The notes under the pieces are model-generated. The model saw only the letters and a program-made list of their open reading frames with translations, searched no databases and was not told the DNA's origin. 40,828 nt of DNA, from the IMG/VR virus record IMGVR_UViG_3300025168_000199, positions 1 to 40,828 of that record, one strand, 5' to 3'. A program made the translations under genes and the position numbers. This document shows positions 9,076 through 38,508 of this stretch, piece after piece. The DNA comes from a virus (taxonomy: Duplodnaviria; Caudoviricetes). Within the stretch, counting starts at the first letter, position 1. The number at the start of each line of letters is the position of its first letter.

Positions 9076-9594
9076 ATGTTGGATGGAATCATCGATGAAG
9101 TGCGGGCATGGAGCAAGCGAGTGCTTGAGCCACCACGAAAGGACATGCAGGACTTTTCAGTGTGTCCGTACGCAGCAGGAGCATGGGAAGCAAACGCCGC
9201 CGATGTCGTGTTGGTTGACAACCAGCGAGACGTGCTGCAAGAGATTCCGTCATTCATTGAGAGCAAGTCTGCTGTCAAGATTCTTGTCAAGGTTGAGCCA
9301 GATGATTGGCCGATGGACACGTTTCTCGAAGACGTGCGAAGGCTTAACAAACGGTGGTCAAGGAAGAACGTGTACTGCATGGGGCTGCACCCTTGGGATG
9401 AGAACACATTTCTTGCGTCAGCATCTGAGGAAGATTCAGACCTCGACCTGCACGATGAATATGTGTTCTTGCTGTTGTTTAGGTTGGACGAACTCAATAT
9501 CGCCAGCAAGGCCATCGACGAAGACGGGTACTACAAGCAATGGCGAGCAGAACTGTACTACGAAATCCTCGCAAGAAGAGAGTCCAGTAAATGA
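9076..9594 (+). CDS. CPYA-motif acidic protein (DUF1415-like), paralog 1
   Basis: W...L.....CPYA..AW, an HP motif, and LFRLDELN..S..I...GYY..W. Confidence 0.65.
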   Translation: MLDGIIDEVRAWSKRVLEPPRKDMQDFSVCPYAAGAWEANAADVVLVDNQRDVLQEIPSFIESKSAVKILVKVEPDDWPMDTFLEDVRRLNKRWSRKNVYCMGLHPWDENTFLASASEEDSDLDLHDEYVFLLLFRLDELNIASKAIDEDGYYKQWRAELYYEILARRESSK

Positions 9595-10136
9595 CGCTTG
9601 ATCTGAACACAATCAAGCAGGACTTACAGCAGTGGGTGGTCAACTACCTTGACGTGCCGAGCGAGTTTTACAGCGGCAATAAGCCGTGTCCGTTTGCTCT
9701 CAAGTCGTGGACCAAGAGCAAGGTCAAGGTGGTGCTGGGCGAGGCGGCAGAAGTCGAACGGCAGGTCGCGGCGTGGGATGACAGTTGCGAACTTCTGATA
9801 GTTGTTTATGATCACGAGGCATGGTCAAGCAACGATTGGGTAAGAGAGAAAAACACAAGCATCACGGGTGACGACCTGTATCTCATGTCGTTTGACCCAG
9901 ACGATTCCGACCCTGACGACCCGAGCCTCGACCCTCACGAGTGGGGATCGATAACCGAGGACGTGTATGGGATGGTGTTTTTACAGCGGCTTTCTAATCT
10001 GAATGCGTATTCAGAGAAACTTAGGCCGACTGGTTACTACGAGAACGTGTCCCGTGACTTCATGGAATACGTCAACGAAAGGAAAATGACATGCGTGGCA
10101 GAAGCAAAGCAACCGGCAAACGATCAAAGCCTATGA
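9591..10136 (+). CDS. CPFA-motif acidic protein (DUF1415-like), paralog 2
   Basis: W...L.....CPFA..SW and LQRLSNLN..S..L...GYY, the same pattern as the upstream gene. Confidence 0.7.
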   Translation: MTLDLNTIKQDLQQWVVNYLDVPSEFYSGNKPCPFALKSWTKSKVKVVLGEAAEVERQVAAWDDSCELLIVVYDHEAWSSNDWVREKNTSITGDDLYLMSFDPDDSDPDDPSLDPHEWGSITEDVYGMVFLQRLSNLNAYSEKLRPTGYYENVSRDFMEYVNERKMTCVAEAKQPANDQSL

Positions 10137-24854: not shown

Positions 24855-27800
24855 ATGACGCAACTTGATCTATCGTTTGATTCTGTGTTTGGCAACCAGC
24901 CTGCTGCTGCGCCCAAGAACAACATTGATTTGTCGTTCGATTCGGTGTTTGGTAATGCACCGTATGGGTATCGCGTAGACGGCACGCCAAAGGGCGAAGG
25001 TTGGCTTGGTCTGATTCCGATGAATGACGGCAGGCAAATGTCTGAGTTGTCAGTTGGTGTTGAGTTTGACGGCAAAGAGACACTGATACCTGCAATTGTT
25101 CCCGGTCTTAGCGACGAACAAATTGACTACTTGAAGGCTGGTGGTGATCCTCGTGAAAATCGCGAGATTATGCAGATGGCTCAAGACCACGCCATGCAAC
25201 GTATGCGTGCGGGCAAGGGTCCATTTGCTGATGCAGATTATGAAAAGCCAAAGCCTAGTTTTCTTGACCGCGATAAGGAACGATTTGACATAGGTCGCGG
25301 CGTTATGCGTCAGGCCCAAGAGTACCTCGACAGCGGCAAGCCTATCGAAAACATAGACGAAGACATCTTGTCATTCATGTTAAGCGACGACTCGCGCGGA
25401 GAGTATGTATTGGAAGAAAAGCAGTACAACGATTTGCGTCAGGCGTTGCAGGATCGTCAGTCAGAAGAGTTGGGTACGTTTAGCGGGATAATTTCAGAAG
25501 TAACTGATCAACTAAAACGCCCGGCTCGTGGGCTTATAGAAACGATTGCATCGACGCCGCAGTCGATGGGTCGTGCGTACGAAACTTTTCGCGAAACAGC
25601 AATGGGGCTTGTCGATACAGACACATCTCTCGGTCAAGCAATAGACATTGTCTCACGTCAAATGCTCAACGAACAAACTGGAAAGATGATCAAAGGCGGT
25701 GAAGCGTTGGATGACGTTTCGCGTGAGTTGCTAGAAACAGAATTGTTTGTTAACAAGGCAGCGGAAATCAATTTAAGTTTAACTGATTGGCGAACGTGGG
25801 CATACACAGTAGGCAAAGGCATTGGTCAAATGGCGGCGATGATTGTTGCAGGCGCAACGGCTGGACCCGCTGGAGTAGCAATTATTGGTTACGGCATGGG
25901 GGCAGATCAGATATACGACGGTGTGTACGACGTGCTTGGAAAAGCAGAGGGCATGCCAGAAGCAGAGCGTGACAGAATTGCAAGAGAGTACGCTTTGGTC
26001 GGTGGTTCAATTAGTGCCGTACTTGAGATGGCTGGTATCGAAAAAGTCTTGGGCCGTATCGGCAAGAACAAGACAACGCTTGGCCAATACTTCAAGGACA
26101 TCGCAGTCGCTTCGATGGCGGAAGGTCTGACAGAGGCGGCACAGACTTCTCTTGAGCAGACGCTCAACTACATGGCCGACGAAACCATACCGATGGACGA
26201 TCGTGTCAACATAGCCACCAAGTTTGTCGAGAACATGTTTACGTCTGAGACAGCGTTGGCCGCTGGTACAGGAGCGATTGTCGGCGGCGGTGCGGTTGCA
26301 GTTGGATCGCCGGTTACGTCGAGAATTGACGAGAAGAAACTACGCAAGAAGTTTGTTGAGCCGTACGTTCGTGACAGGCAGCCTGAGCCGGAGCAGATTG
26401 AGATTGAAGGCCAGCCATACATACGTCAGGAGTCAACCGGCAACCTTATCCCCGCGACCCTAGAAAACATTGTTCAGGAACGTGAGGCCCAGCGTGCGAC
26501 AATTGAAGAAGACTTGCAGACGAAGGAGGCCGAAGACATTGAGGACATTGAGGCCACCGGCGAGAAATTTGTTGTTGTCCGCGATGGCGAAATAGTTGGC
26601 GAGTTTGATCCCGCTGGCAGCGATGAGTTAAATGAGAGCCTGCGTGCCTCTGGTCGCGACCCAGATGAGACCGACATGCAGGACTTTGCATTCGATGAGG
26701 CTGAACGTGTGGCCGCCGTAGAGGGCGGAGAGGTCATGGTGGAGAGTGAGTACCTCAGAGACACCCGAGAGCAGCAAGCCGCTGAGAGGCGAAGTACGCT
26801 CGCTGAGACGGACCCTGAGTTAATCGAGTTGACACCCGCAGAACAATCGCTGCAAGTGATCGATCGTGCGGCGACTGCTGAAAGTAAAAACAACGTACAG
26901 CACACCAGCCGAGTGATGACCACGCGGGAGTCATCGCCAGCAGCCAGAAAAATACAAGCAATTGGTGAGAAGGCTGGACTTGAAGTTGTAGTTATTGAAA
27001 CCCAAACCAGTGATGGATCGGTTGCTGAATTCCCGGCGGTCATTGACCCAAATAACTCACGACGTATATTTGTAAGTGACTCGGGTTCACAACGTGACAT
27101 GCTTGAACTTGTGTTTGGTCACGAATTGTTTCACACGCTGGAAAAAGAAAACCCTGACTTGTACGACGCACTGATATCTCAGTTGCCGTCTAAATTTAGG
27201 CAAGCCCTTGCTAGATACAGCGAGACTGGTTTGCTTGGATCTGACCCCTCGGTAAGCAAACTATTGTCAGAAGGATTTGCGCAGTTAACGCAAGACAGCC
27301 TGCTCGGCCTCGGGACCGAGTCTCTGTTCGACGGTGATGCCACGAAGATCCAAAGGTTCAAGGACTTCGTGCGACGCATGATGGTCAAGTTAGGCATGCG
27401 AGGCAAGTGGGCCAAGGACGTGTTGAACGTCATGGAGCAGATTGCCGGTGGCGTTGACCTTGCCGACATTGGCCTGACCAAGAAACAAGAGAGCCGAGTT
27501 GATCGACTCAGGCGTGACGCAGAGAGAAACAAGCCTAAACAACCTAGACAAACACGACAGCCCGAACAAACTCAACAGCCGCCGCAAACTGCTGTGCAAA
27601 CTGAAGGTGAGCCAGTTGCACAAGAGCCAACCGCACAAGATCCAGTTGTAATTAATTACGAAGATACTAAGGGCGACGTTGGAAGTGATGTAGAGGTTGA
27701 GCCTAAGGATTACTATCCAAACGCAAATGTTGGCGACAACATACATGTGTATGACATAGACGGCAATAGAAGAACTGCCAGAGTTGCAGCAATTTCTGAT

Positions 27801-30800
27801 GCTGGAAGTATGAAAGTTGAATTTGTAAATTCAGCCGGAGAGGTTGTAACTGAAGCACTTGTTGGACTCAGTGCAATCGCTAGTCCCATCAACCCTAAAA
27901 GTTCAGAATTTGAAATTGTTCATATTAGTGGTAGTGGTCAACTACGCGGGTTTGAAGGCAGAAGAATAGAAAGTTTGTCTGACCGTGAATTAGAATTCGT
28001 TGAAGGTCTTGCAATCGACCACCTTAAAAATTTAGATTCTACAGCAGTCGATATGAGTCCAATACAAATTAAACAAGGACTAAATGACGCAGGAGAATCT
28101 CCAGTTTTGAAAACTCGTGCGTTGATGACTGCTGTTAAAGCAGAAATTGCACGTCGCCAAGAGACGGCAGAAACACAAGCACAGCCGCAGCCTGATACTG
28201 CCCCGGTCGCAGGCGTTACTCAGGAGGACATTGACGCAGAGCCTGACCCGACCGTGCAGTTTGCTGCCGCTCCTCCTGTCCAGTCGCCTGAGTTCCGCCG
28301 GTGGTTTAAGAACTCAAAGGTAGTAGATAATCAGGGCAAACCGCAGGTTGTTTACCACGGCACTAAGCGTGAATTCTCCAAGTTTGAGTCTAGGTTTCCT
28401 GAACTCAAACTTTTGTTCTTTACTGAAGATTCCAAGTTCGCATCTGATTGGATGGATGGGCAGGGTGGTGTGAGGCAGGCTTCTGACGAAGTTATTTCAG
28501 AAGCCAACGAAATGCGAGCATACGAAAGGCAGTTGTATGACGAGTTGGGCATTAGAGATATTGATCCTAGCACTGATGCCGGTCTTGCAGCATTCGATCA
28601 AATCCAGCAAACAATCAAAGATCGCATGACAGAGCGATTTGGATTTGAATCGGCAAGCAGGTACAAAGACGTAGGTGGCACTCGTGTTATGCCTGTTTAC
28701 TTGTCGGTACAAAAGTTGTTTGACCCTCGCAAGCATTGGAATTCAATCGAACTTGAATCAAACAGTCCGCAATACATTGAAGCCGCTAAACGTGGAACAT
28801 GGATCGTTTACGAAAACGAAAACACTATCGACCAAATCAAAGCACTTGGTTACGACGGAATACGTTTAGCAGAGTCTACTTTGGAAGACGCACCGCTAAA
28901 CACAATTGCGGTATTTGACCCGACTCAAATAAAGTCAGCCACTGCCAACGTCGGAACCTACGACCCAAGTAACCCTGACATCCAGTTTGCTGCTAGGCGT
29001 AAAGACGAACTAGAAATACAATTTGCAGCCAAGCCGCCAAACGCACCAAATGAACGAGTGCGATCTCTAGCACGCGGCTACATGAATTCCGTTGGAATGA
29101 ACTATGAAGAGCGGGCTGGTGAATATGTTGAGATTGATCCAGTAGTAGGAATGCAAATTGCAGACGCATTTGACGCAATGCAACATTCGCCAACCGACCC
29201 TGCGGTAATTGAATCGTACAACGCGCTTAAGAAAGAAACGCTTGACCAGTATGACTATCTGATTGCAAACGGTGTACAACTAATACCGTGGGCTGGAAAA
29301 GGTGAGCCGTATCCATTCCCAAATGGCAGCAAGTTAATGGCTGAAGATGTACAGGCAAACGAGCGTCTGTATTACTTCAAAACAATTAATCCTGAAGAAG
29401 AAGTATCGTTTGGTCAGGGCGAAGGCGTGCAAGGTAATCCGTTGTTGGATGATGTGGGCCGTCCAGTTCGCGACTCTGTTGGAAACATGCACAGCCAAAC
29501 GTATAACGACCTATTCAGAGCAGTGCATGATTACTTTGGTCACTCTAAAGAAGGTTACGGGTTTGGTCCGCGTGGAGAAGAAAACGCATGGGTAGTGCAT
29601 TCGCGTATGTACAGTTCACTCGCACGTCGTTCGATGACAACGGAAACGCGAGGACAGAACAACTGGGTCAATTGGAACAAGGATTATGGCCAAAGGCTTG
29701 ATGGCACTCCAATCGTTCGCGGGGACGAAGATTACATACCGCTTGCAGACAGGCCATATGCAGAACAAAAAATTGGTTTGTTGCCTAAAGAATATGTTCA
29801 GTTTGCTGCTCGCGTAGAACGAGGCACGTTGCCATTGGGCAGCAAGTCTGATGCAACGCCGCGAACATACAGATTGCGTCACATAAGCAAAGAAGACAGA
29901 ACAGATGTTGGTTTGTCATTAGAATACGCGGGAAGTTCTACAGCCAACCGAGACGAAAGACAGCGATATCAATCTGATCCTAGCGATCGCGAGTTGCATT
30001 TCTACACGGAAAAAGCTCAGGCTGAATACATCGTGCTTACCAATAACAAGGTGTCGCATGATGTTGAAACAGAACTGCGTATTTTGAGATTCGGTTCGCC
30101 TGAACACGCAAGTATGTTTAACAAACTTGTAGAAAGGCGACAGAAAACCAACGCATGGGGAATTGCAGACAACCGAAGATACTTTCAAGAACTAAAACGA
30201 GAGGCGATTGCAGAAGGCTACGACGCTGTTGAAAACCCTATGATTGGACACGTCGTTGTGCTACGCGACGTGGCAGCCTCAGACATAGTAAACGCTCAGA
30301 CGCTTGATAGTGATCTAAAAAACCAACTGGCTCAGAACGTACAGTTTGCAGCGAGAAAGCAAGAACAAGTTTCAGAAAAACGATTGTCTTTAAGTAACGC
30401 TAGAGAAGTAATACCTACGGGCGGCAAAAAAGAAAAAAAGACGGTTACTGTTAAAGATGCAGCAGCCGCCATCATGCGGCCTCGTACAGATTACAAAGAC
30501 GAAAAGCAATTCAACGCGGCGGTTGACCGTGCCGTTCGTATGGTTGAACTTCAACTTGATCAAGAACAAAGTGGGTTAGGTTGGTACAACAAAGACATTG
30601 TCAGCGCGTGGGTTGAAACATCCAAAGTTTATCCTGAACTCGCAGATCCTAAACGCCACATTGAAAAACAAGTTTTCTTGTCGATTGCAGCGGTTCTCTC
30701 AAACGGGCAGCAAGCCCCTGCTAATTGGCAAGACGCGGCTTACGCATATGGAGAATACAAAAAGACAGGTCGCATACCAAAGAGACGCGAGGCGGGGACA

Positions 30801-33800
30801 CTTTATGGAACACGAGGCAACACAATTGCACAGCAATTCTCTGCACTCGAACATATGTTCGATGTAATGGGAGAAGCCAACACCGCAATATGGTTGACCT
30901 CACAGAAAACAGTTGACGAGATGCGATCAATACGTCGCGGTGCTGCAAAAGACCCACGTCTTGCAGACAGTAGTTTTAAAAACGACGCGATGTATAAAGA
31001 GTCTCGGACCATGTCTATTGCGGGTCGCAAGAACGTAACCAAATACGGCGCTTATGTGCTTGGTGAAAAGATTGGTCCGTTTTTCTTGAATCTAAATGGC
31101 ATAGACGAAACTACAATTGACGTGTGGGCAATGCGTACGTTTGGCAGAGAGTTCGGAATTCTCTTAGATAATCCATCAAAAGAAACTGGTGTGCATGACG
31201 CACCGACAGGCATCGAAAGGCCGTACGCCAAACGGTTTTTTGAAGAGATAGGAAAACGACTTGGAATCAAAGAACAAGATGCGCAAGCAGTCGCTTGGTT
31301 TGCAGAAAAAGAACTCTACCTCGCAGCCGGAGTCAAGTCAGCAAAGACTTGGTACTTCAGCGACGGAGCAAGAAAATTCGTTAAATCACCCAGTGGGCAG
31401 AGCAGCGTGCGAACGGCTGCACCGACTGTTGGAGCAGGAAGTTCAATCCAGTTCGCAGCCCGACGTTCCCTCACAAAGAAAGAAAAAACCCGTTGGCTGA
31501 CTGGTCAGGTCAAAGATCCTGAACTTCTTGAGATGCAGGCTAAGTACAGGTCTGCTAGTCCGATTGCGAAAGAAGCCTACCGCGAGGGCCGACGTGAAGC
31601 CAAGGCCGAGGCTAAGGAAAAACGCGAGGTCTACACGACTGCGGCCAAGGGTATCTTAGAGGTCGCACGCAATCGGCAGAGAAAACTCAAGTCAGGCTTT
31701 AAAGACATCGAGAAGATGCGTCGCGAGTTGCGTCAGTTGATGCAGAAGGTGTTGTCGCCGAAAGATCGTGGTCGCTACCTCGGGATGCTTGACGACGTGC
31801 GAACCGAAGCCAAAATGAAAGCCGCTTTGCAGCGAATTATCAATAAGGCGGCTAAGTCTGGATGGTCGGACGAGGTTGACAGATACAGGCGTGCAGTCAG
31901 ACGTGTTGGTCGTCACAAGAACATTCCTGACTCGGTAGGCAAAGAACTGGAAGAGTTGGTTGAGCGTGGCAAACAGCAAAGCACCGAGAAGGTTGCCATC
32001 AAGTCTGGCCCGGACACCGGCAAACTAACTACACGCAAGAAAAACATTGGCGGCGTGAAGGCTAACGTCGAGGCAACTACCGACTTGGTAAAGACAACCG
32101 ACGAGATACTAGAGAAATTGCTGGCTGCACTCGAAAACAAACGAGTCACCAAAGAAGGTCGCGGTGTAATGATTGGCATAGCGATTGACGCGATTGTCGA
32201 AGATTTGCGGGCAGGTGCAAATCCGCTTAAACGATCAATAAAAGTGAGAGGCAAAAAGGGAGACGCAACTACTGCGCAAAATGAAATTAAAACCGGCAAG
32301 TTTATGACCGCGTTGTTGTGGCACAGACAAATCCCCAACATCATCAAAGTAATTACTCGTGATCCAAACGGTAACGGGGTATTTCACAAGTTGTTTGTTG
32401 ATGACATGCGTGCTGCTGAATCTAACATGGAGTTGCGAAAGCAGCAGATAATCGCAGAACTAGAAGAAGCAGCGAAACTTGCTGGTTTCAAGAGCCTTGA
32501 AGACGCAAGCGTACGACTTGACGCTTCTCACGGTATTGGGCTGGCTAACCCGTTAATCGAAATAACGCTTGGCGGAAAAAAAGTACAACTGCTCGAAGGC
32601 GAGTTGTTGCACTTGGCGTTAATGGACGCCGGTACTGTTGAGCAGATAATTTACGACAACGTGCCGCTGAAAATTGCAAGGGCTGGTGATTCTGCTATTG
32701 CGTTCCAGAATGTAACAGACCAAGAGTACACAGAAGCAATCAAGAAACTAGACCCAAAGGTTCTGGCTTATGGTCAATACTTGAAAGACAAAATCAATTC
32801 GCTGTCCTCTGAAATGCAACAAGCGTTGCGAAAGTTGCAGGGCTACGACGCGGAAATGATTCCTGATTACTACCCAGTTTCACGCGACCTTTCGGAAACT
32901 AAATTTGGTTCTGAAGTTGACATGGACAACATGCTTAGGGGTAAGACTGGAGTTGGGCAGTCAGCAATTTTGTTTGCAGAGAATTCAGGCCAGACAAGGT
33001 CGCGTGTTAAAAACAAGAACGCAATCTTTGTCAAGCCTGCTACCAACGTGTTTAGCCAGAACATTGATTCGACGTTGCGAATTATCTACATGGCGGAGCC
33101 TATACGCAATGCCGACGCCATTTCTCGCGACCCTCGGGTCAAGCAAGAGATAACAAGCCGCCACGGTACTCGGGTATACAAAGCTCTGCGTCAGTACCTT
33201 GCAGAAGCGTCAGGCATCAACGAGCATCAGGCTGGCGGACTTGGCACGTTCTTTAGATGGATGACTAGTAACCTCGCTGGGTCATACATTGCCTTGAACC
33301 CAAGCACGATGCTTATTCAGTTCTCTGGTATTCCACGCTTGTACGGTCGTGTCAATATGCTTGACATTACCAAGGGCATCACTTGGGCCACGGCAAACAT
33401 CAAACAACTTGGTTCTATCATGGAGCAACATGGTTACTTTGCTGACCGTTGGTCGCGTTCTACAATTACACGATTCGGCCCACAACAATACAGTGGGCTT
33501 GTGCCGGTCAACAAGGATGGTTTCATGCGTGGCGTGACCGACGCCTTGGTGTCGTTGACAAGAATGGATATGAAATCTTTTAACAAGTCGTGGCGATCAG
33601 CAAACGATTCGATTCAAGTCCTTGACGCGATCGACAAGTTTATATGTGGCGTTGCGTACGGTGCGAACTTGGCAAAGGCCAAACGTGAGTCTCCACAGTT
33701 GTCGGAGGCAAACTTGCAAGAACGTGCCTTGGAGGGTGCGGTTCTGGACATACGCGAAACTCAGAACAGTAGTAGTCGTTTGGACCTCTCGGTGTCTGCA

Positions 33801-34721
33801 TCTGATTGGCGCAGGTCACCAGCGGGTGAAGCGTTCCTCCTGTTCTCGTCAGACAGGTTCACGCTCTTGAATCGTCTTGCACACGGCAAGCGTTTGCTGC
33901 AAGAAGGAAACAAGGCCGAAGGCGCTCGCATCATTATGGGTTCGATGATGTCGATGGCGGCAGAAGTCCCCATACGTCAGGCGTACTGGACGATGATCAC
34001 CGCTGGGGTGTTTGCGTTGTTTGGCGGAGAAGACGACGACCGCAAAAAGGCCGAGCGCGCCCAGAAGGCGGAAGAGGTCTGGTACACCAACATTGTGAGA
34101 TCGTTCGTAGGCATGAGTCCAATCTTCGGCGGCCTGTTTGAAACAGGTGCGTCAATGTTTATGGACAAGATGTACTCGGACGCTTTCTTGAGTTCAGCAG
34201 CGGGCGACGCTGTCGCCAACATCGCGAGAAACGGCAAGCGGGCAACGAGCGAATTTATGAAACTGACTGACGAAGAACAGGAGTTCGCAGTTGAAGTGGC
34301 TATCTCCAGCACCGTCAACATGCTCAGTCAAATTGCAGCCCTAACCACCGGCAACCCGTTGCACCCAATCGTCAACAAACTTATGCGTGGCTGGGCCGGG
34401 AACGGCAACGACCCTGTTGGCGACCTGAACAAACTCGACACCTACTACAGCGGTGTTGAAGAGTTGACCGACGAGCAACGTGAAAACGCAGACGAAGTCA
34501 AGCGTGAGAACAAGGGCATCAAGAGACAAGCCAGCAGAATACGCAGCCAAATAAAAGCCCTGCGTGTTCGTGCCGCTGCGGGCGAAAGCATCGAGGCTGA
34601 GATGCGTGGGTTGCAAGTTCGCATGGCCGAGTTGGAGTTGCGGTCGATGAAGATACTCGGATACGACACAGAAGACTTGCAAGAGTACGCCGACGAGAAG
34701 GGCATCAGTCTCGAACAATGA
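24855..34721 (+). CDS. Giant polyvalent ejection protein (3288 aa): zincin metallopeptidase, ADP-ribosyltransferase, HDxxGH domain, second ART-like domain, HhH-glycosylase-like domain, helical C-terminal core
   Basis: HELFH at aa 756. FRRWFKNSKVVD..GKP.VVYHGT...VFDPTQIKS (ART-PolyVal-type). FRAVHDYFGH...ETRGQN. GWY...LS.....NW...GEKIGPFFLN...TIDVW..R...QA..W. Confidence 0.85.
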   Translation: MTQLDLSFDSVFGNQPAAAPKNNIDLSFDSVFGNAPYGYRVDGTPKGEGWLGLIPMNDGRQMSELSVGVEFDGKETLIPAIVPGLSDEQIDYLKAGGDPRENREIMQMAQDHAMQRMRAGKGPFADADYEKPKPSFLDRDKERFDIGRGVMRQAQEYLDSGKPIENIDEDILSFMLSDDSRGEYVLEEKQYNDLRQALQDRQSEELGTFSGIISEVTDQLKRPARGLIETIASTPQSMGRAYETFRETAMGLVDTDTSLGQAIDIVSRQMLNEQTGKMIKGGEALDDVSRELLETELFVNKAAEINLSLTDWRTWAYTVGKGIGQMAAMIVAGATAGPAGVAIIGYGMGADQIYDGVYDVLGKAEGMPEAERDRIAREYALVGGSISAVLEMAGIEKVLGRIGKNKTTLGQYFKDIAVASMAEGLTEAAQTSLEQTLNYMADETIPMDDRVNIATKFVENMFTSETALAAGTGAIVGGGAVAVGSPVTSRIDEKKLRKKFVEPYVRDRQPEPEQIEIEGQPYIRQESTGNLIPATLENIVQEREAQRATIEEDLQTKEAEDIEDIEATGEKFVVVRDGEIVGEFDPAGSDELNESLRASGRDPDETDMQDFAFDEAERVAAVEGGEVMVESEYLRDTREQQAAERRSTLAETDPELIELTPAEQSLQVIDRAATAESKNNVQHTSRVMTTRESSPAARKIQAIGEKAGLEVVVIETQTSDGSVAEFPAVIDPNNSRRIFVSDSGSQRDMLELVFGHELFHTLEKENPDLYDALISQLPSKFRQALARYSETGLLGSDPSVSKLLSEGFAQLTQDSLLGLGTESLFDGDATKIQRFKDFVRRMMVKLGMRGKWAKDVLNVMEQIAGGVDLADIGLTKKQESRVDRLRRDAERNKPKQPRQTRQPEQTQQPPQTAVQTEGEPVAQEPTAQDPVVINYEDTKGDVGSDVEVEPKDYYPNANVGDNIHVYDIDGNRRTARVAAISDAGSMKVEFVNSAGEVVTEALVGLSAIASPINPKSSEFEIVHISGSGQLRGFEGRRIESLSDRELEFVEGLAIDHLKNLDSTAVDMSPIQIKQGLNDAGESPVLKTRALMTAVKAEIARRQETAETQAQPQPDTAPVAGVTQEDIDAEPDPTVQFAAAPPVQSPEFRRWFKNSKVVDNQGKPQVVYHGTKREFSKFESRFPELKLLFFTEDSKFASDWMDGQGGVRQASDEVISEANEMRAYERQLYDELGIRDIDPSTDAGLAAFDQIQQTIKDRMTERFGFESASRYKDVGGTRVMPVYLSVQKLFDPRKHWNSIELESNSPQYIEAAKRGTWIVYENENTIDQIKALGYDGIRLAESTLEDAPLNTIAVFDPTQIKSATANVGTYDPSNPDIQFAARRKDELEIQFAAKPPNAPNERVRSLARGYMNSVGMNYEERAGEYVEIDPVVGMQIADAFDAMQHSPTDPAVIESYNALKKETLDQYDYLIANGVQLIPWAGKGEPYPFPNGSKLMAEDVQANERLYYFKTINPEEEVSFGQGEGVQGNPLLDDVGRPVRDSVGNMHSQTYNDLFRAVHDYFGHSKEGYGFGPRGEENAWVVHSRMYSSLARRSMTTETRGQNNWVNWNKDYGQRLDGTPIVRGDEDYIPLADRPYAEQKIGLLPKEYVQFAARVERGTLPLGSKSDATPRTYRLRHISKEDRTDVGLSLEYAGSSTANRDERQRYQSDPSDRELHFYTEKAQAEYIVLTNNKVSHDVETELRILRFGSPEHASMFNKLVERRQKTNAWGIADNRRYFQELKREAIAEGYDAVENPMIGHVVVLRDVAASDIVNAQTLDSDLKNQLAQNVQFAARKQEQVSEKRLSLSNAREVIPTGGKKEKKTVTVKDAAAAIMRPRTDYKDEKQFNAAVDRAVRMVELQLDQEQSGLGWYNKDIVSAWVETSKVYPELADPKRHIEKQVFLSIAAVLSNGQQAPANWQDAAYAYGEYKKTGRIPKRREAGTLYGTRGNTIAQQFSALEHMFDVMGEANTAIWLTSQKTVDEMRSIRRGAAKDPRLADSSFKNDAMYKESRTMSIAGRKNVTKYGAYVLGEKIGPFFLNLNGIDETTIDVWAMRTFGREFGILLDNPSKETGVHDAPTGIERPYAKRFFEEIGKRLGIKEQDAQAVAWFAEKELYLAAGVKSAKTWYFSDGARKFVKSPSGQSSVRTAAPTVGAGSSIQFAARRSLTKKEKTRWLTGQVKDPELLEMQAKYRSASPIAKEAYREGRREAKAEAKEKREVYTTAAKGILEVARNRQRKLKSGFKDIEKMRRELRQLMQKVLSPKDRGRYLGMLDDVRTEAKMKAALQRIINKAAKSGWSDEVDRYRRAVRRVGRHKNIPDSVGKELEELVERGKQQSTEKVAIKSGPDTGKLTTRKKNIGGVKANVEATTDLVKTTDEILEKLLAALENKRVTKEGRGVMIGIAIDAIVEDLRAGANPLKRSIKVRGKKGDATTAQNEIKTGKFMTALLWHRQIPNIIKVITRDPNGNGVFHKLFVDDMRAAESNMELRKQQIIAELEEAAKLAGFKSLEDASVRLDASHGIGLANPLIEITLGGKKVQLLEGELLHLALMDAGTVEQIIYDNVPLKIARAGDSAIAFQNVTDQEYTEAIKKLDPKVLAYGQYLKDKINSLSSEMQQALRKLQGYDAEMIPDYYPVSRDLSETKFGSEVDMDNMLRGKTGVGQSAILFAENSGQTRSRVKNKNAIFVKPATNVFSQNIDSTLRIIYMAEPIRNADAISRDPRVKQEITSRHGTRVYKALRQYLAEASGINEHQAGGLGTFFRWMTSNLAGSYIALNPSTMLIQFSGIPRLYGRVNMLDITKGITWATANIKQLGSIMEQHGYFADRWSRSTITRFGPQQYSGLVPVNKDGFMRGVTDALVSLTRMDMKSFNKSWRSANDSIQVLDAIDKFICGVAYGANLAKAKRESPQLSEANLQERALEGAVLDIRETQNSSSRLDLSVSASDWRRSPAGEAFLLFSSDRFTLLNRLAHGKRLLQEGNKAEGARIIMGSMMSMAAEVPIRQAYWTMITAGVFALFGGEDDDRKKAERAQKAEEVWYTNIVRSFVGMSPIFGGLFETGASMFMDKMYSDAFLSSAAGDAVANIARNGKRATSEFMKLTDEEQEFAVEVAISSTVNMLSQIAALTTGNPLHPIVNKLMRGWAGNGNDPVGDLNKLDTYYSGVEELTDEQRENADEVKRENKGIKRQASRIRSQIKALRVRAAAGESIEAEMRGLQVRMAELELRSMKILGYDTEDLQEYADEKGISLEQ

Positions 34722-34764: not shown

Positions 34765-35535
34765 ATGGACGACAGATCATTCGTAGCGTTTAGTTGTTTG
34801 CACGCACCGTTGCACGACCGAGAAGCGGTGGCTTGGCTTATTGAATTGATTGCTAAGGAGCAGCCCGATGTTGTCGTCAACCTTGGCGACGGTCACGAGA
34901 TGGACTGGGCCTCGAAGTGGGACTCGGAGTCGGAGTGTTCCGCACTCGAAGAGTACGAGTCGCACAACGAGATCATGAAGGAGATCCGACTGGCAGCCCC
35001 TGATGCTCGTCGAGTTTTTCTTCCCGGCAATCACGAGTGGCGATTGTTTAAACCGCAGGTTCCCGAACAGATTCGATCTGCGTTGCACTGGAAACAACAC
35101 GAGCCAGAGTTGCGTGACCACTGGGAACACCCGGTGCAGTACCTGAACTGTCGTCACCGTGGTGTGTTCCGACTTGGTCAGGTTGTGTTCAACCACGGGT
35201 TCGCGGTGTCGGCGTCCAGTGTCAAGAAGGAAACATGCACGCTCACCCGCGAGTGGGGGCTGTACGTTCACGGTCACCTGCATCGTGCGACGCAGCCGGG
35301 TCCACCGGAGCGTGTGCAGATGACGGCGAACTGGTTAGGAAACTGGTGGCGAGCGAACCCCGGTTGTCTTCGAGACTTAAAACCTGCGTACATGGGGATG
35401 CTTGATTCCTCGTCATGGTCGCAGGGCGCAGTCATCGGTCGTGCGCAAATGATCAAGTCACCCAGAGCGAAGCGGTGCTGGGATTGTCGCACCGAAATCT
35501 TCCGAACCTACGACGAGTGGAGCGAGCGACAGTGA
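34765..35535 (+). CDS. Calcineurin-like metallophosphoesterase
   Basis: SCLH, LGD, GNHE, HG and GHLH motifs. Confidence 0.88.
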   Translation: MDDRSFVAFSCLHAPLHDREAVAWLIELIAKEQPDVVVNLGDGHEMDWASKWDSESECSALEEYESHNEIMKEIRLAAPDARRVFLPGNHEWRLFKPQVPEQIRSALHWKQHEPELRDHWEHPVQYLNCRHRGVFRLGQVVFNHGFAVSASSVKKETCTLTREWGLYVHGHLHRATQPGPPERVQMTANWLGNWWRANPGCLRDLKPAYMGMLDSSSWSQGAVIGRAQMIKSPRAKRCWDCRTEIFRTYDEWSERQ

Positions 35536-36701: not shown

Positions 36702-37228
36702 GTTACCAGATCAAGCAGTTTGACCTGCACATCGAGTGCGACACGATCGCATTTTCAGCACGGCCTCAGGGTGAGGTCGCAAAGATACTCAGAGAGTTGG
36801 CTCAACGACTCGACGAGATGAATGAGTTGAGGGACGGCTCGCAGTTCGTCCTTCAGGACACGCACAACTGTAAGGTCGGTTGTGCAACGTGGGATGACTT
36901 TTCAACGGAGGCAACGGATGTCACAAACAGAGACATTGACAGGAGAGGTGAGGGGGATGCCAGCACAGGCGTACCACGACTCACTCGGGGTTTCATCGAC
37001 AGCGCTCAGGAGCGTTCTGAAGTGCGACCAATTGGCGAGGCATCGGGAGATGTACCCGCTGAACACGAAGGCGTTGACGTTCGGCGAGGCCGTACACACG
37101 GCGGTGCTGGAGCCAGCCACGTACCGGCGACGCTACGGATTGATGACCGAAAGTGGAAACACCAAAGCAGGCCGCGAGCAGAAGGCTGGGTTCCTCAGAC
37201 TCAACAAGGAAGTTCTCAGCAAGGGTGA
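36698..37228 (+). CDS. Small conserved phage protein (F.L.I.....AF....EVAKILRELA...L.D....VG) with an extension overlapping the exonuclease gene
   Basis: ATG coupled to the upstream stop. The first ~65 aa look like a real domain, and there is no stop until 37228. Confidence 0.6.
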   Translation: MSYQIKQFDLHIECDTIAFSARPQGEVAKILRELAQRLDEMNELRDGSQFVLQDTHNCKVGCATWDDFSTEATDVTNRDIDRRGEGDASTGVPRLTRGFIDSAQERSEVRPIGEASGDVPAEHEGVDVRRGRTHGGAGASHVPATLRIDDRKWKHQSRPRAEGWVPQTQQGSSQQG

Positions 37229-37769
37229 CGCAGAGGCGTGCGGTGGTATCGCGATCAGCGTCAGGCAGCACCCGGCGGCAGGTCGGCTGCTTGACACGAA
37301 GCAGTATTTCGCGCGAGTCGAGAGTAGTTTCTACGGAAAGCACGAGCCTACAGGATTGGTCACGAGGTGCAGGTGCGACCTGATCGTTACCGGCGGCGAC
37401 AACGATCGCATCGTTGACCTGAAGACAACCGAGGACGCGAGCGAGGAGTCGTTCATGCGATCGGTCGTCAAGTACGGTTACCACATTCAGGCTGCGTACT
37501 ATCGCGGTATCGTGGAGCAGTTACTTGGGGTCCGGCTGCCGTTCTACTTCGTCGCGGTAGAGAAGAAGGCTCCGTATCTCGTGCAGGTATTTGAACTGGA
37601 CGAGGAGGCAATGAGGATTGGATTTGACGAGGCGCAGTACGCCCTGAAGTTGTACGACGATTATCGAGGCAAGCCCGCTGGCCCGATGCACAACGGATAC
37701 AGCGCGGCAATCAACAAACTCTCGCTGCCACTCTGGTACGGCGGGAATAAGGAGGCAACAGATGTCTGA
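36918..37769 (+). CDS. Exonuclease VIII/RecE-like PD-(D/E)xK nuclease (DUF3799-like)
   Basis: YH...SST.L, FGEAVHTAVLEP, RCRCD, IVDLKTT, YGYHIQAAYY, FVAVEK. Confidence 0.9.
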   Translation: MSQTETLTGEVRGMPAQAYHDSLGVSSTALRSVLKCDQLARHREMYPLNTKALTFGEAVHTAVLEPATYRRRYGLMTESGNTKAGREQKAGFLRLNKEVLSKGDAEACGGIAISVRQHPAAGRLLDTKQYFARVESSFYGKHEPTGLVTRCRCDLIVTGGDNDRIVDLKTTEDASEESFMRSVVKYGYHIQAAYYRGIVEQLLGVRLPFYFVAVEKKAPYLVQVFELDEEAMRIGFDEAQYALKLYDDYRGKPAGPMHNGYSAAINKLSLPLWYGGNKEATDV

Positions 37770-38508
37770 ACTAGTAGTGCATGGAACAAATGAAATGTCA
37801 GTGCGGGACGTGTCGGAGATATTCGCGAAGTCGGGAATGTTCGACTCGGCACAGTCCGCAGTGCAGGTGGCAGCGAAGTTGATCGTCGGTCGAGGTCTTG
37901 GAATGAACGACTACGACTCGATGCAGTTCAACATCATCAAGGGTAAGGTCAACCTGAACGCGAACATGATGGCCGCTGCCGTCAAGCGAAGTGGCAAGTA
38001 CAACTACAAGGTGATCGCACACGACGAGAACCAGTGCGTGATCGAGTTCTTCGAGAACTGGGGCGAAGGCTGGCAGGCGATGGGGACCGAGTCGTTCACG
38101 ATGGAGGACGCGACGCGGGCCGGACTTGGCGGCATGAACTGGAAGAAGTACCCTCGCCCGATGTTGTTCGCTCGTGCGATCAGTGCGGGGTACAGGAAGT
38201 TCTGCCCAGACGCGTTCGGGATGGCAGCGATCTACGTTGAGGAGCGTGGCGAAACCGAGATCCCAAGCAGCGAGCCGATCGCCGATGCCGAGGTGGTGGA
38301 GACCTCAATCGAGTCCCAGTACGAGGACAACTACGATCGACTGAAGCAGATGTGCGCTGACTACGAGTCACGAACCGGGAAGAATGTTTCCACTGGAATG
38401 TGCGGATACTTTGGCGTCGAGTGTATCGACGACATGAAGGCCGACTCTGTGCCTGCCGCGATCGACATGATGAATACCAAACTGAAAGGAATTGATTCAG
38501 ATGCCTGA
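37762..38508 (+). CDS. Single-strand annealing recombinase (RecT/Beta-like)
   Basis: Follows the exonuclease. IIKGK..L.A..M, FT.EDA.RAGL, WKKYPRPMLFARAIS. Confidence 0.8.
   Translation: MSELVVHGTNEMSVRDVSEIFAKSGMFDSAQSAVQVAAKLIVGRGLGMNDYDSMQFNIIKGKVNLNANMMAAAVKRSGKYNYKVIAHDENQCVIEFFENWGEGWQAMGTESFTMEDATRAGLGGMNWKKYPRPMLFARAISAGYRKFCPDAFGMAAIYVEERGETEIPSSEPIADAEVVETSIESQYEDNYDRLKQMCADYESRTGKNVSTGMCGYFGVECIDDMKADSVPAAIDMMNTKLKGIDSDA

Follow-up and report, generated by a model that had tools for sequence, protein, structure and literature searches.

A repeated QFAA peptide at the module joints of a giant polyvalent phage protein, a candidate site for its own zincin-like peptidase

One gene of the 40,828-nt Caudoviricetes record IMGVR_UViG_3300025168_000199 (the whole stretch of DNA analysed, hereafter the window) encodes a protein of 3288 amino acids (aa) in which the short peptide QFAA recurs at the joints of an array of exchangeable modules. 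Selection at these joints acts on the peptide, which is rewritten when a module changes scaffold and which co-varies with the lineage of a zincin-like domain in the same chain. We consider it somewhat more probable than the contrary (roughly 0.55) that the QFAA peptides are sites read and cut in cis by this zincin, thereby freeing the modules. Both the protein family and the self-processing hypothesis were already known, the latter from Iyer, Burroughs, Anand, de Souza and Aravind 2017 (PMC5512222), whereas no publication was found that describes the site or its co-variation with the peptidase. Titles, abstract openings and partial texts, mostly from the open literature, yielded no published account of such a linker or of a measured cut.

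The giant gene encodes a chain of ~366 kDa and contains exactly six copies of QFAA, each preceded by V or I and followed by A, R or K. The Gln codons begin at 28257, 28983, 29019, 29799, 30342 and 31449 (aa 1135, 1377, 1389, 1649, 1830 and 2199). The first-pass annotation had listed these six copies and none elsewhere in the protein, and the recount agreed with it. Composition predicts 0.05 copies, and six copies of any 4-mer were reached in 0/2000 shuffles. Outside the giant protein no QFAA occurs on the + strand of the window, and one copy lies in a shadow frame of the - strand. The gene, its putative peptidase and the six linkers, the latter read from the sequence, are as follows.

24855..34721, + strand: polyvalent protein of the probable ejection type, 3288 aa; in a podovirus-like morphogenesis operon three genes follow the tail genes, this one being the last and the largest.
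26925..27467, + strand: putative zincin-like metallopeptidase (MPTase) domain (aa ~691-871), with HELFH at 27120-27134, candidate third ligand Glu806 (27270-27272) and a weak Pfam match to Peptidase_M57 (E 0.016).
28254..28271, + strand: linker 1, VQFAAA (aa 1134-1139).
28980..28997, + strand: linker 2, IQFAAR (aa 1376-1381).
29016..29033, + strand: linker 3, IQFAAK (aa 1388-1393).
29796..29813, + strand: linker 4, VQFAAR (aa 1648-1653), at the last helical turn of the model of unit 3.
30339..30356, + strand: linker 5, VQFAAR (aa 1829-1834).
31446..31463, + strand: linker 6, IQFAAR (aa 2198-2203), exactly where homology of the C-terminal scaffold to proteins P0002 and P0003 starts.

The coding of the six copies was then compared. 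Identical codons were found in 31 of 72 same-residue pairs, compared to 26.7 expected from the codon use of the gene (P 0.17), the codons at the four linker Arg residues are all different, the flanking DNA is 28–30% identical, and the longest exact run between two copies is 12 nt. As codon likeness does not exceed chance, we conclude that the peptide is conserved and not the DNA, as had been suggested at first reading. For the window we also reject a recombination site at the level of DNA, with codon likeness at chance and exact runs of no more than 12 nt. It is very unlikely that shuffling of modules left the repeat as a by-product, with short homology serving a RecET-like system and the peptide having no function. 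Exonuclease VIII-like and RecT-like genes do lie downstream of the giant gene (36882-38508), and the empty 12-aa unit between linkers 2 and 3 resembles a cassette scar. Duplicated joints are also DNA-identical beyond chance in the homologous loci L001, L008 and L017 (P 0.001-0.002), which indicates recent copying in register. However, the codons of the window are at chance likeness, locus L018 keeps its peptide though only 1/13 codon pairs are identical, and a six-residue switch described below needs selection on the peptide. With regard to the first-pass alternative of a joint for domain swapping, this protein is unlikely to have a joint that acts purely as DNA.

The segments delimited by the linkers, together with the scaffold and two modules outside the array, are listed next.

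28272..28979, + strand: unit 1, ART-PolyVal domain of the ADP-ribosyltransferase (ART) fold (PF18760, E 1.2e-22); 65-75% identical, with the same ends, in P0002 and P0003.
28998..29015, + strand: unit 2, empty spacer, with linkers 2 and 3 separated by 12 aa.
29034..29795, + strand: unit 3, conserved HDxxGH...GEENA domain, recognised by conservation and by free-standing and viral homologs; model with a predicted local distance difference test score (pLDDT) of 85.5.
29814..30338, + strand: unit 4, rare module with a weak resemblance to ART; its counterpart in P0124 (40% identity) terminates in the linker proper to that protein.
30357..31445, + strand: unit 5, DUF7178-like (E 6e-4; Atlas 0.90), common in other polyvalent proteins.
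31464..34718, + strand: C-terminal scaffold (aa 2204-3288), conserved at 47-61% identity in P0002 and P0003.
24966..25226, + strand: small mobile domain (aa 38-124) without QFAA fencing, 62% identical to the C-terminal end of P0124.
27657..28184, + strand: window-specific module (aa ~935-1110) without QFAA on its N side, with one homolog, P0056.

All six QFAA sites sit at joints of this array. Starts and ends of BLAST matches within aa 1100-2250 against 202 long homologs were used to map module boundaries, with a tolerance of 12 aa. Within this distance of a QFAA site lay 217 of 354 ends and 218 of 350 starts (435/704 together), compared to a mean of 87 and a maximum of 386 of 704 for six random sites in 5000 draws, the matches being related and not independent. 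The claim that the motifs fall at module edges was thus upheld. The closest kin, P0002 and P0003 (locus L001 is a near copy of the latter), match the window protein in the N and C parts and in unit 1; their cargo otherwise differs and their peptidase regions are ~50% identical. In these kin [QR]FAA stands at all joints, with seven sites in P0002 and five in P0003, and homology of the C scaffold begins at the last linker in all three proteins.

Unit 3 provided a view of one module on its own. The first-pass description of a HDxxGH domain proved correct in that the domain is real and conserved, and in 26 of 120 short homologs both ends of the free protein lie within 15 aa of linkers 3 and 4. Among the unit-3 homologs of <300 aa listed, none ends in the QFAA peptide. 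The unit-3 model places linkers 2 and 3 in a stretch of low confidence and shows linker 4 as its final turn. That the peptide arose by chance, or caps each fold, is extremely improbable and is largely refuted. The position of linker 4 as a last helical turn would suit a cap, but the flanking domains are unrelated and free unit-3 homologs lack the peptide, while chance is opposed by the shuffles, none of which reached six copies. Unit 3 belongs to no Pfam family and gave no Foldseek match in the PDB at E 0.001 or better; fold comparison by VIA gave a best Z of 2.7, with ArdC at Z 2.4, within noise, so that reading its HDxxGH...EE as a second zincin is conjecture. The domain is widespread in phages, with invariant N..R..HD..GH and GEE...ETRGQN motifs, stands alone in many contigs and opens gp205 of Rhodococcus phage E3 (annotated as structural). 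Sequence searches of the PDB with units 3 and 5 returned nothing under E 0.04, and a single-sequence model of aa 1116-2222 was unusable (pLDDT 35.9). As to the other module names first proposed, the ART label of unit 1 stood (PF18760, E 1e-22), the ART-like label of unit 4 found weak support from hhalign (54% over 37 columns), and the HhH-like label of unit 5 was not confirmed, a DUF7178 match being all that was obtained and a PDB sequence match being absent.

The HELFH motif of the putative peptidase lies where first reported (aa 756-760) and is the sole HExxH of the protein. HELFH and Glu806 are invariant in a three-row alignment, and HExxH is present in at least 90% of 23 rows. A HExxH followed by a downstream Glu is the pattern of a zincin-like MPTase, and the domain is a candidate for one by sequence. 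Among 166 long homologs HExxH is absent from 31, of which eight have HExxxH and three look truncated. With the peptidase alone as query, no relative was detected in viral contigs; a metagenome scan found the window's own contig and one partial relative, and a profile-library search gave nine matches, two of which were repeat artefacts.

If the peptide is a recognition site, homologs should carry recurring peptides of their own. Examples of homolog linkers include RYSLR, FSEQR, RAQSD, LSID, MLSPA, ESAR and I-L-x-Q. Because the linkers are degenerate, exact k-mer counting misses most of them. For each protein, the five residues that follow the ART tail were scored against the 36 that follow unit 3, which is unrelated to the ART domain, both within the protein and across other proteins. 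From 947 sequences, 61 had both anchors and 45 remained after dereplication. The two linkers of the same protein gave a mean score of 11.3 compared to a null of 7.2 ± 0.5, a value reached in 0/20000 permutations. From these data we conclude that homologs carry their own repeated linkers, as the first-pass annotation had asked, clearly so in part of the family. The giant protein of the cultured Synechococcus phage MinM2 (L075:9415-17826) has four copies of ESAR (WEV89212, aa 1125, 1329, 1546 and 1918), one behind a unit-3 homolog and one behind an ART domain, and the same match as this protein was obtained in Planktothrix phage Pag-Yong1. Another cultured relative, Octadecabacter virus BD1, has a protein (gp16) of the ILxQ class. 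Proteins P0010, P0029, P0036 and P0009 contain five to 12 ART-PolyVal copies per chain, most of them ending in the protein's own linker.

The linkers were next compared with the peptidases. Across 71 clusters linker similarity correlated with peptidase similarity (rho 0.38), but hardly with ART similarity (0.09). The key residue was predicted by the nearest peptidase in 47/53 cases and by the nearest ART in 31/53, chance being 0.43; 18 of the 71 clusters had no peptidase neighbour and were dropped from these counts. As this first peptidase segment could include an upstream linker, a second test was limited to the peptidase core. The 46 full-length clusters gave rho 0.31 and a partial r of 0.25, compared to partial r values of 0.13 for the C-terminal 500 aa, 0.09 for the N-terminus and 0.08 for the ART domain. 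Nearest-neighbour prediction in this set succeeded in 33/38 cases with the peptidase, 33/43 with the C-terminus and 25/46 with the ART domain. The key residue is Q in 35/35 distinct linkers of the peptidase clade with ADLSTFxHExGH, S in 17/17 linkers of a second clade, and A in 3/3 of the window's clade. In proteins that carry the peptidase first, a copy of the protein's own linker tends to follow it (P 0.007, n=19).

A natural swap separates the linker from the module that bears it. The ART tails of P0003 and P0124 are identical at 36/38 residues and then continue as IQFAAR and MMLSPA, respectively, and the head of the module is switched likewise; the ART domains are 38% identical overall and the peptidases 26%. 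A related ART tail in P0011 ends in LRYSLR. As only the last six residues were switched behind the nearly identical tail, selection on the peptide is needed to account for it.

Several results weigh against cis cleavage, or against reading the correlations as a property of the enzyme. The protein's own linker was the best match in only 12/45 proteins and among the top three in 19/45, so that only part of the family gives a clear private-linker signal. The N-terminus predicts the linker by nearest neighbour (26/29) as well as the peptidase does, and lineage and enzyme are therefore not cleanly separated; the co-variation that the first-pass annotation had asked about was found (rho 0.31-0.38, compared to 0.08-0.09 for the ART domain), but scaffold lineage predicts almost as well by nearest neighbour. 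A fourth peptidase clade is mixed, with 8 S, 5 Q and 2 K among 15 linkers. In the clade with the peptidase last, no copy of the own linker adjoining the peptidase was found (P 0.12, n=20). In P0081, whose C scaffold is 23% identical to that of the window protein, EEAVH replaces HExxH and five SxART linkers are kept, one of which precedes the peptidase domain. Linker strength is equal in 67 HExxH clusters (mean z 0.94) and in clusters without a detectable peptidase (0.90), a small and noisy comparison with six such clusters, several resting on one comparison. The modules at aa 38-124 and 935-1110 are not fenced by QFAA, and in P0124 the homolog of unit 4 is followed, but not preceded, by a linker. 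Most precedents for the domain are uncut, the best-studied carriers N4 virion RNA polymerase (vRNAP) and ArdC among them: PMC5512222 notes this of N4 vRNAP, ArdC and TraC1, N4 gp50 vRNAP was solved intact, with a HExxH domain before a helical C part (PMC13434306), and the protease activity of ArdC is described as dispensable (PMC7213743). The self-processing proposal is thus supported in part, by the module edges, the private linkers and the co-variation, but has to accommodate the EExxH relative.

Some of these results could be explained if the peptide is bound and not cut, serving as a docking or threading mark for the zincin-fold domain or for the scaffold, which would pack, unfold or order the modules as these are loaded and ejected. 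We regard this as unlikely. Docking explains the linker-peptidase co-variation equally well, and it fits the intact linkers of P0081, the uncut N4 vRNAP, the dispensable ArdC activity and the small partial effects retained by C- and N-scaffold similarity. However, N4-like proteins eject large cargo without a shared linker, HExxH is retained in most homologs, and sites that flank both sides of a module and match the ends of free-standing homologs suit release better.

The N4 comparison was made with ten N4-like vRNAPs. All contain HExxH and no shared linker was found (own score 18.0, others 16.8); one of the ten scores above shuffles, with a linker that is not retained in its close kin. A KEPVN in both linkers of N4 (P 0.007, post hoc) was rejected as a family feature, having no match in nine relatives. 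That these proteins are uncut and have no shared linker fits a rule of no linker, no cut, but it also means that HExxH need not signify self-cleavage.

Cutting in trans, by a host envelope or cytoplasmic protease or by a phage protease encoded beyond the contig, is quite unlikely. P0081 keeps its linkers with EExxH, the contig may be incomplete, and related domains in the head-operon phages of loci L044, L009 and L030 end or start in tags common to separate genes, as for T4 gp21. On the other hand, a host enzyme is not expected to shift its specificity with the peptidase clade of the phage, and QFAA occurs in no other virion protein. Pfam searches covered 57 of the 210 open reading frames (ORFs) listed in the window and PHROGs searches 30; among these neither a prohead protease gene nor any further peptidase was found, many ORFs being without a match in a possibly incomplete contig. 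According to PMC9026906, T4 gp21 cuts after L/I-x-E and phiKZ gp175 after S/A-x-E. These systems resemble the present one in that a short phage-specific motif marks cuts in packed and ejected proteins, but their cuts are made in trans, in many head proteins, by a distinct serine protease, whereas QFAA is confined to one chain among the proteins of the window and contains no Glu. The portions seen of PMC9503650 contain nothing on cleavage sites.

Short tags were also observed in their own right in three loci. In L044:3409-14147 a start tag, MIKLKxLLxE, is shared by 12 of 15 ORFs examined, with an ART-PolyVal domain directly behind it; this tag resembles a T4-type capsid-targeting propeptide ending in L/I-x-E. 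In L009:69-16460, from a 172-kb phage, K-H-L-[PAQ]-G, often followed by x-H-D, occurs in at least five separate genes next to those for terminase and portal; one of the copies forms the end of an ART domain. In L030:2388-10534 the portal protein and two proteins encoded beside it carry [TA]KS[MF] at their ends, a few residues short of the stop codon, and one copy is an ART tail.

The gene setting agrees with that of polyvalent proteins of phages. Terminase, portal, major head protein and adaptor are encoded upstream on the same strand, followed by genes of 1144, 320 and 581 aa and then the giant gene, a layout that resembles podovirus ejection genes and suggests that the 3288-aa protein is located in the virion. 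One chain joins disparate domains (ART-PolyVal, unit 3, the DUF7178-like unit and the zincin-like domain) that are shuffled among homologs, and with its zincin-like MPTase and its place among virion genes the protein is a member of the polyvalent class. In PMC5512222 polyvalent proteins are likewise giant virion-operon proteins combining ART-PolyVal, disparate domains and a HExxH MPTase, the latter being the most frequent domain of the class and present in about 36%, and MPTase autoproteolysis is proposed to occur before packaging, in the head or after injection. Its main text returned no match to 'linker' and names no linker or cleavage motif. The present protein differs in the private, peptidase-tracking peptide that fences its modules and in that no LPD38 match was found in it, including the C-terminal scaffold.

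Three podovirus ejection proteins with a HExxH domain share its architecture, with the largest gene behind the tail module encoding an N part, cargo, a zincin-like domain and a large C part. Of these, phi24B gp47, a protein with LPD38 and a peptidase, is present in virions, its peptidase being assigned to peptidoglycan by the authors (bioRxiv 10.64898/2026.04.10.717836). The work on phi14:2 gp65/gp66 only suggests cleavage by the zincin for fused polyproteins of crAss-like phages (bioRxiv 10.1101/2020.03.07.982082). The third, N4 gp50, differs in being intact, in belonging to a family without a shared linker and in being an RNA polymerase; no such domain was found in the giant protein by Pfam or PHROGs, its units being 175-365 aa.

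Other features of the region were recorded. A metallophosphoesterase gene (34765-35535) lies directly behind the giant gene, and two adjacent ORFs that both match phrog_28122 (9076-10136) lie between terminase and portal. The giant protein begins with a twofold DLSFDSVFGN repeat (24855-24960), possibly a packaging tag, with an echo in L001.

In the mechanism that we favour, a fixed scaffold, consisting of the N part with the zincin-like domain and the C part, would hold exchangeable modules, each fenced by the same private peptide. Gene position and the precedents of phi24B gp47 and N4 gp50 suggest that the chain is packed as a large ejection protein. The zincin would read [VI]QFAA[RKA] and cut, probably during or after ejection into the host. 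The predicted pieces are ~124, 28, 1.5, 29, 21, 41 and 121 kDa of the 366 kDa, so that four modules (~28, 29, 21 and 41 kDa) with a possible anti-host role would be cut out of scaffold halves of 124 and 121 kDa. New modules would probably enter by in-register recombination at the joint, with selection then fitting the joint to the peptidase already in place. Release of effectors from one chain, at repeated sites and by a cis protease, is likewise known from MARTX toxins and RNA-virus polyproteins. They serve as a working analogy; the MARTX protease is a cysteine protease, the protease class and the delivery are different, and a sequence relation is not expected.

If the cis-cleavage reading holds, this polyvalent protein works like a self-processing polyprotein. 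Extending it, we would tentatively suggest, at a little short of even chances, that many podoviruses run a plug-in effector system in which the zincin and a private site of four to six residues co-evolve as lock and key, while inserted enzymes are packaged, delivered and released in the host and the ends of incoming modules are rewritten to the resident key. If true, sequence-specific proteases of orthogonal specificity would form a common phage family that has escaped notice, and the limits of domains in many early effectors could be read exactly from the sites. That the peptide tracks the peptidase clade makes the 2017 proposal of MPTase self-cutting, for which the papers found name neither site nor substrate, directly testable; the window's clade and P0124 form a swap pair for such a test, and Synechococcus phage MinM2 with its ESAR copies is the cultured candidate. 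Whether the linkers are cut or only bound, they give exact module boundaries for phage effectors.

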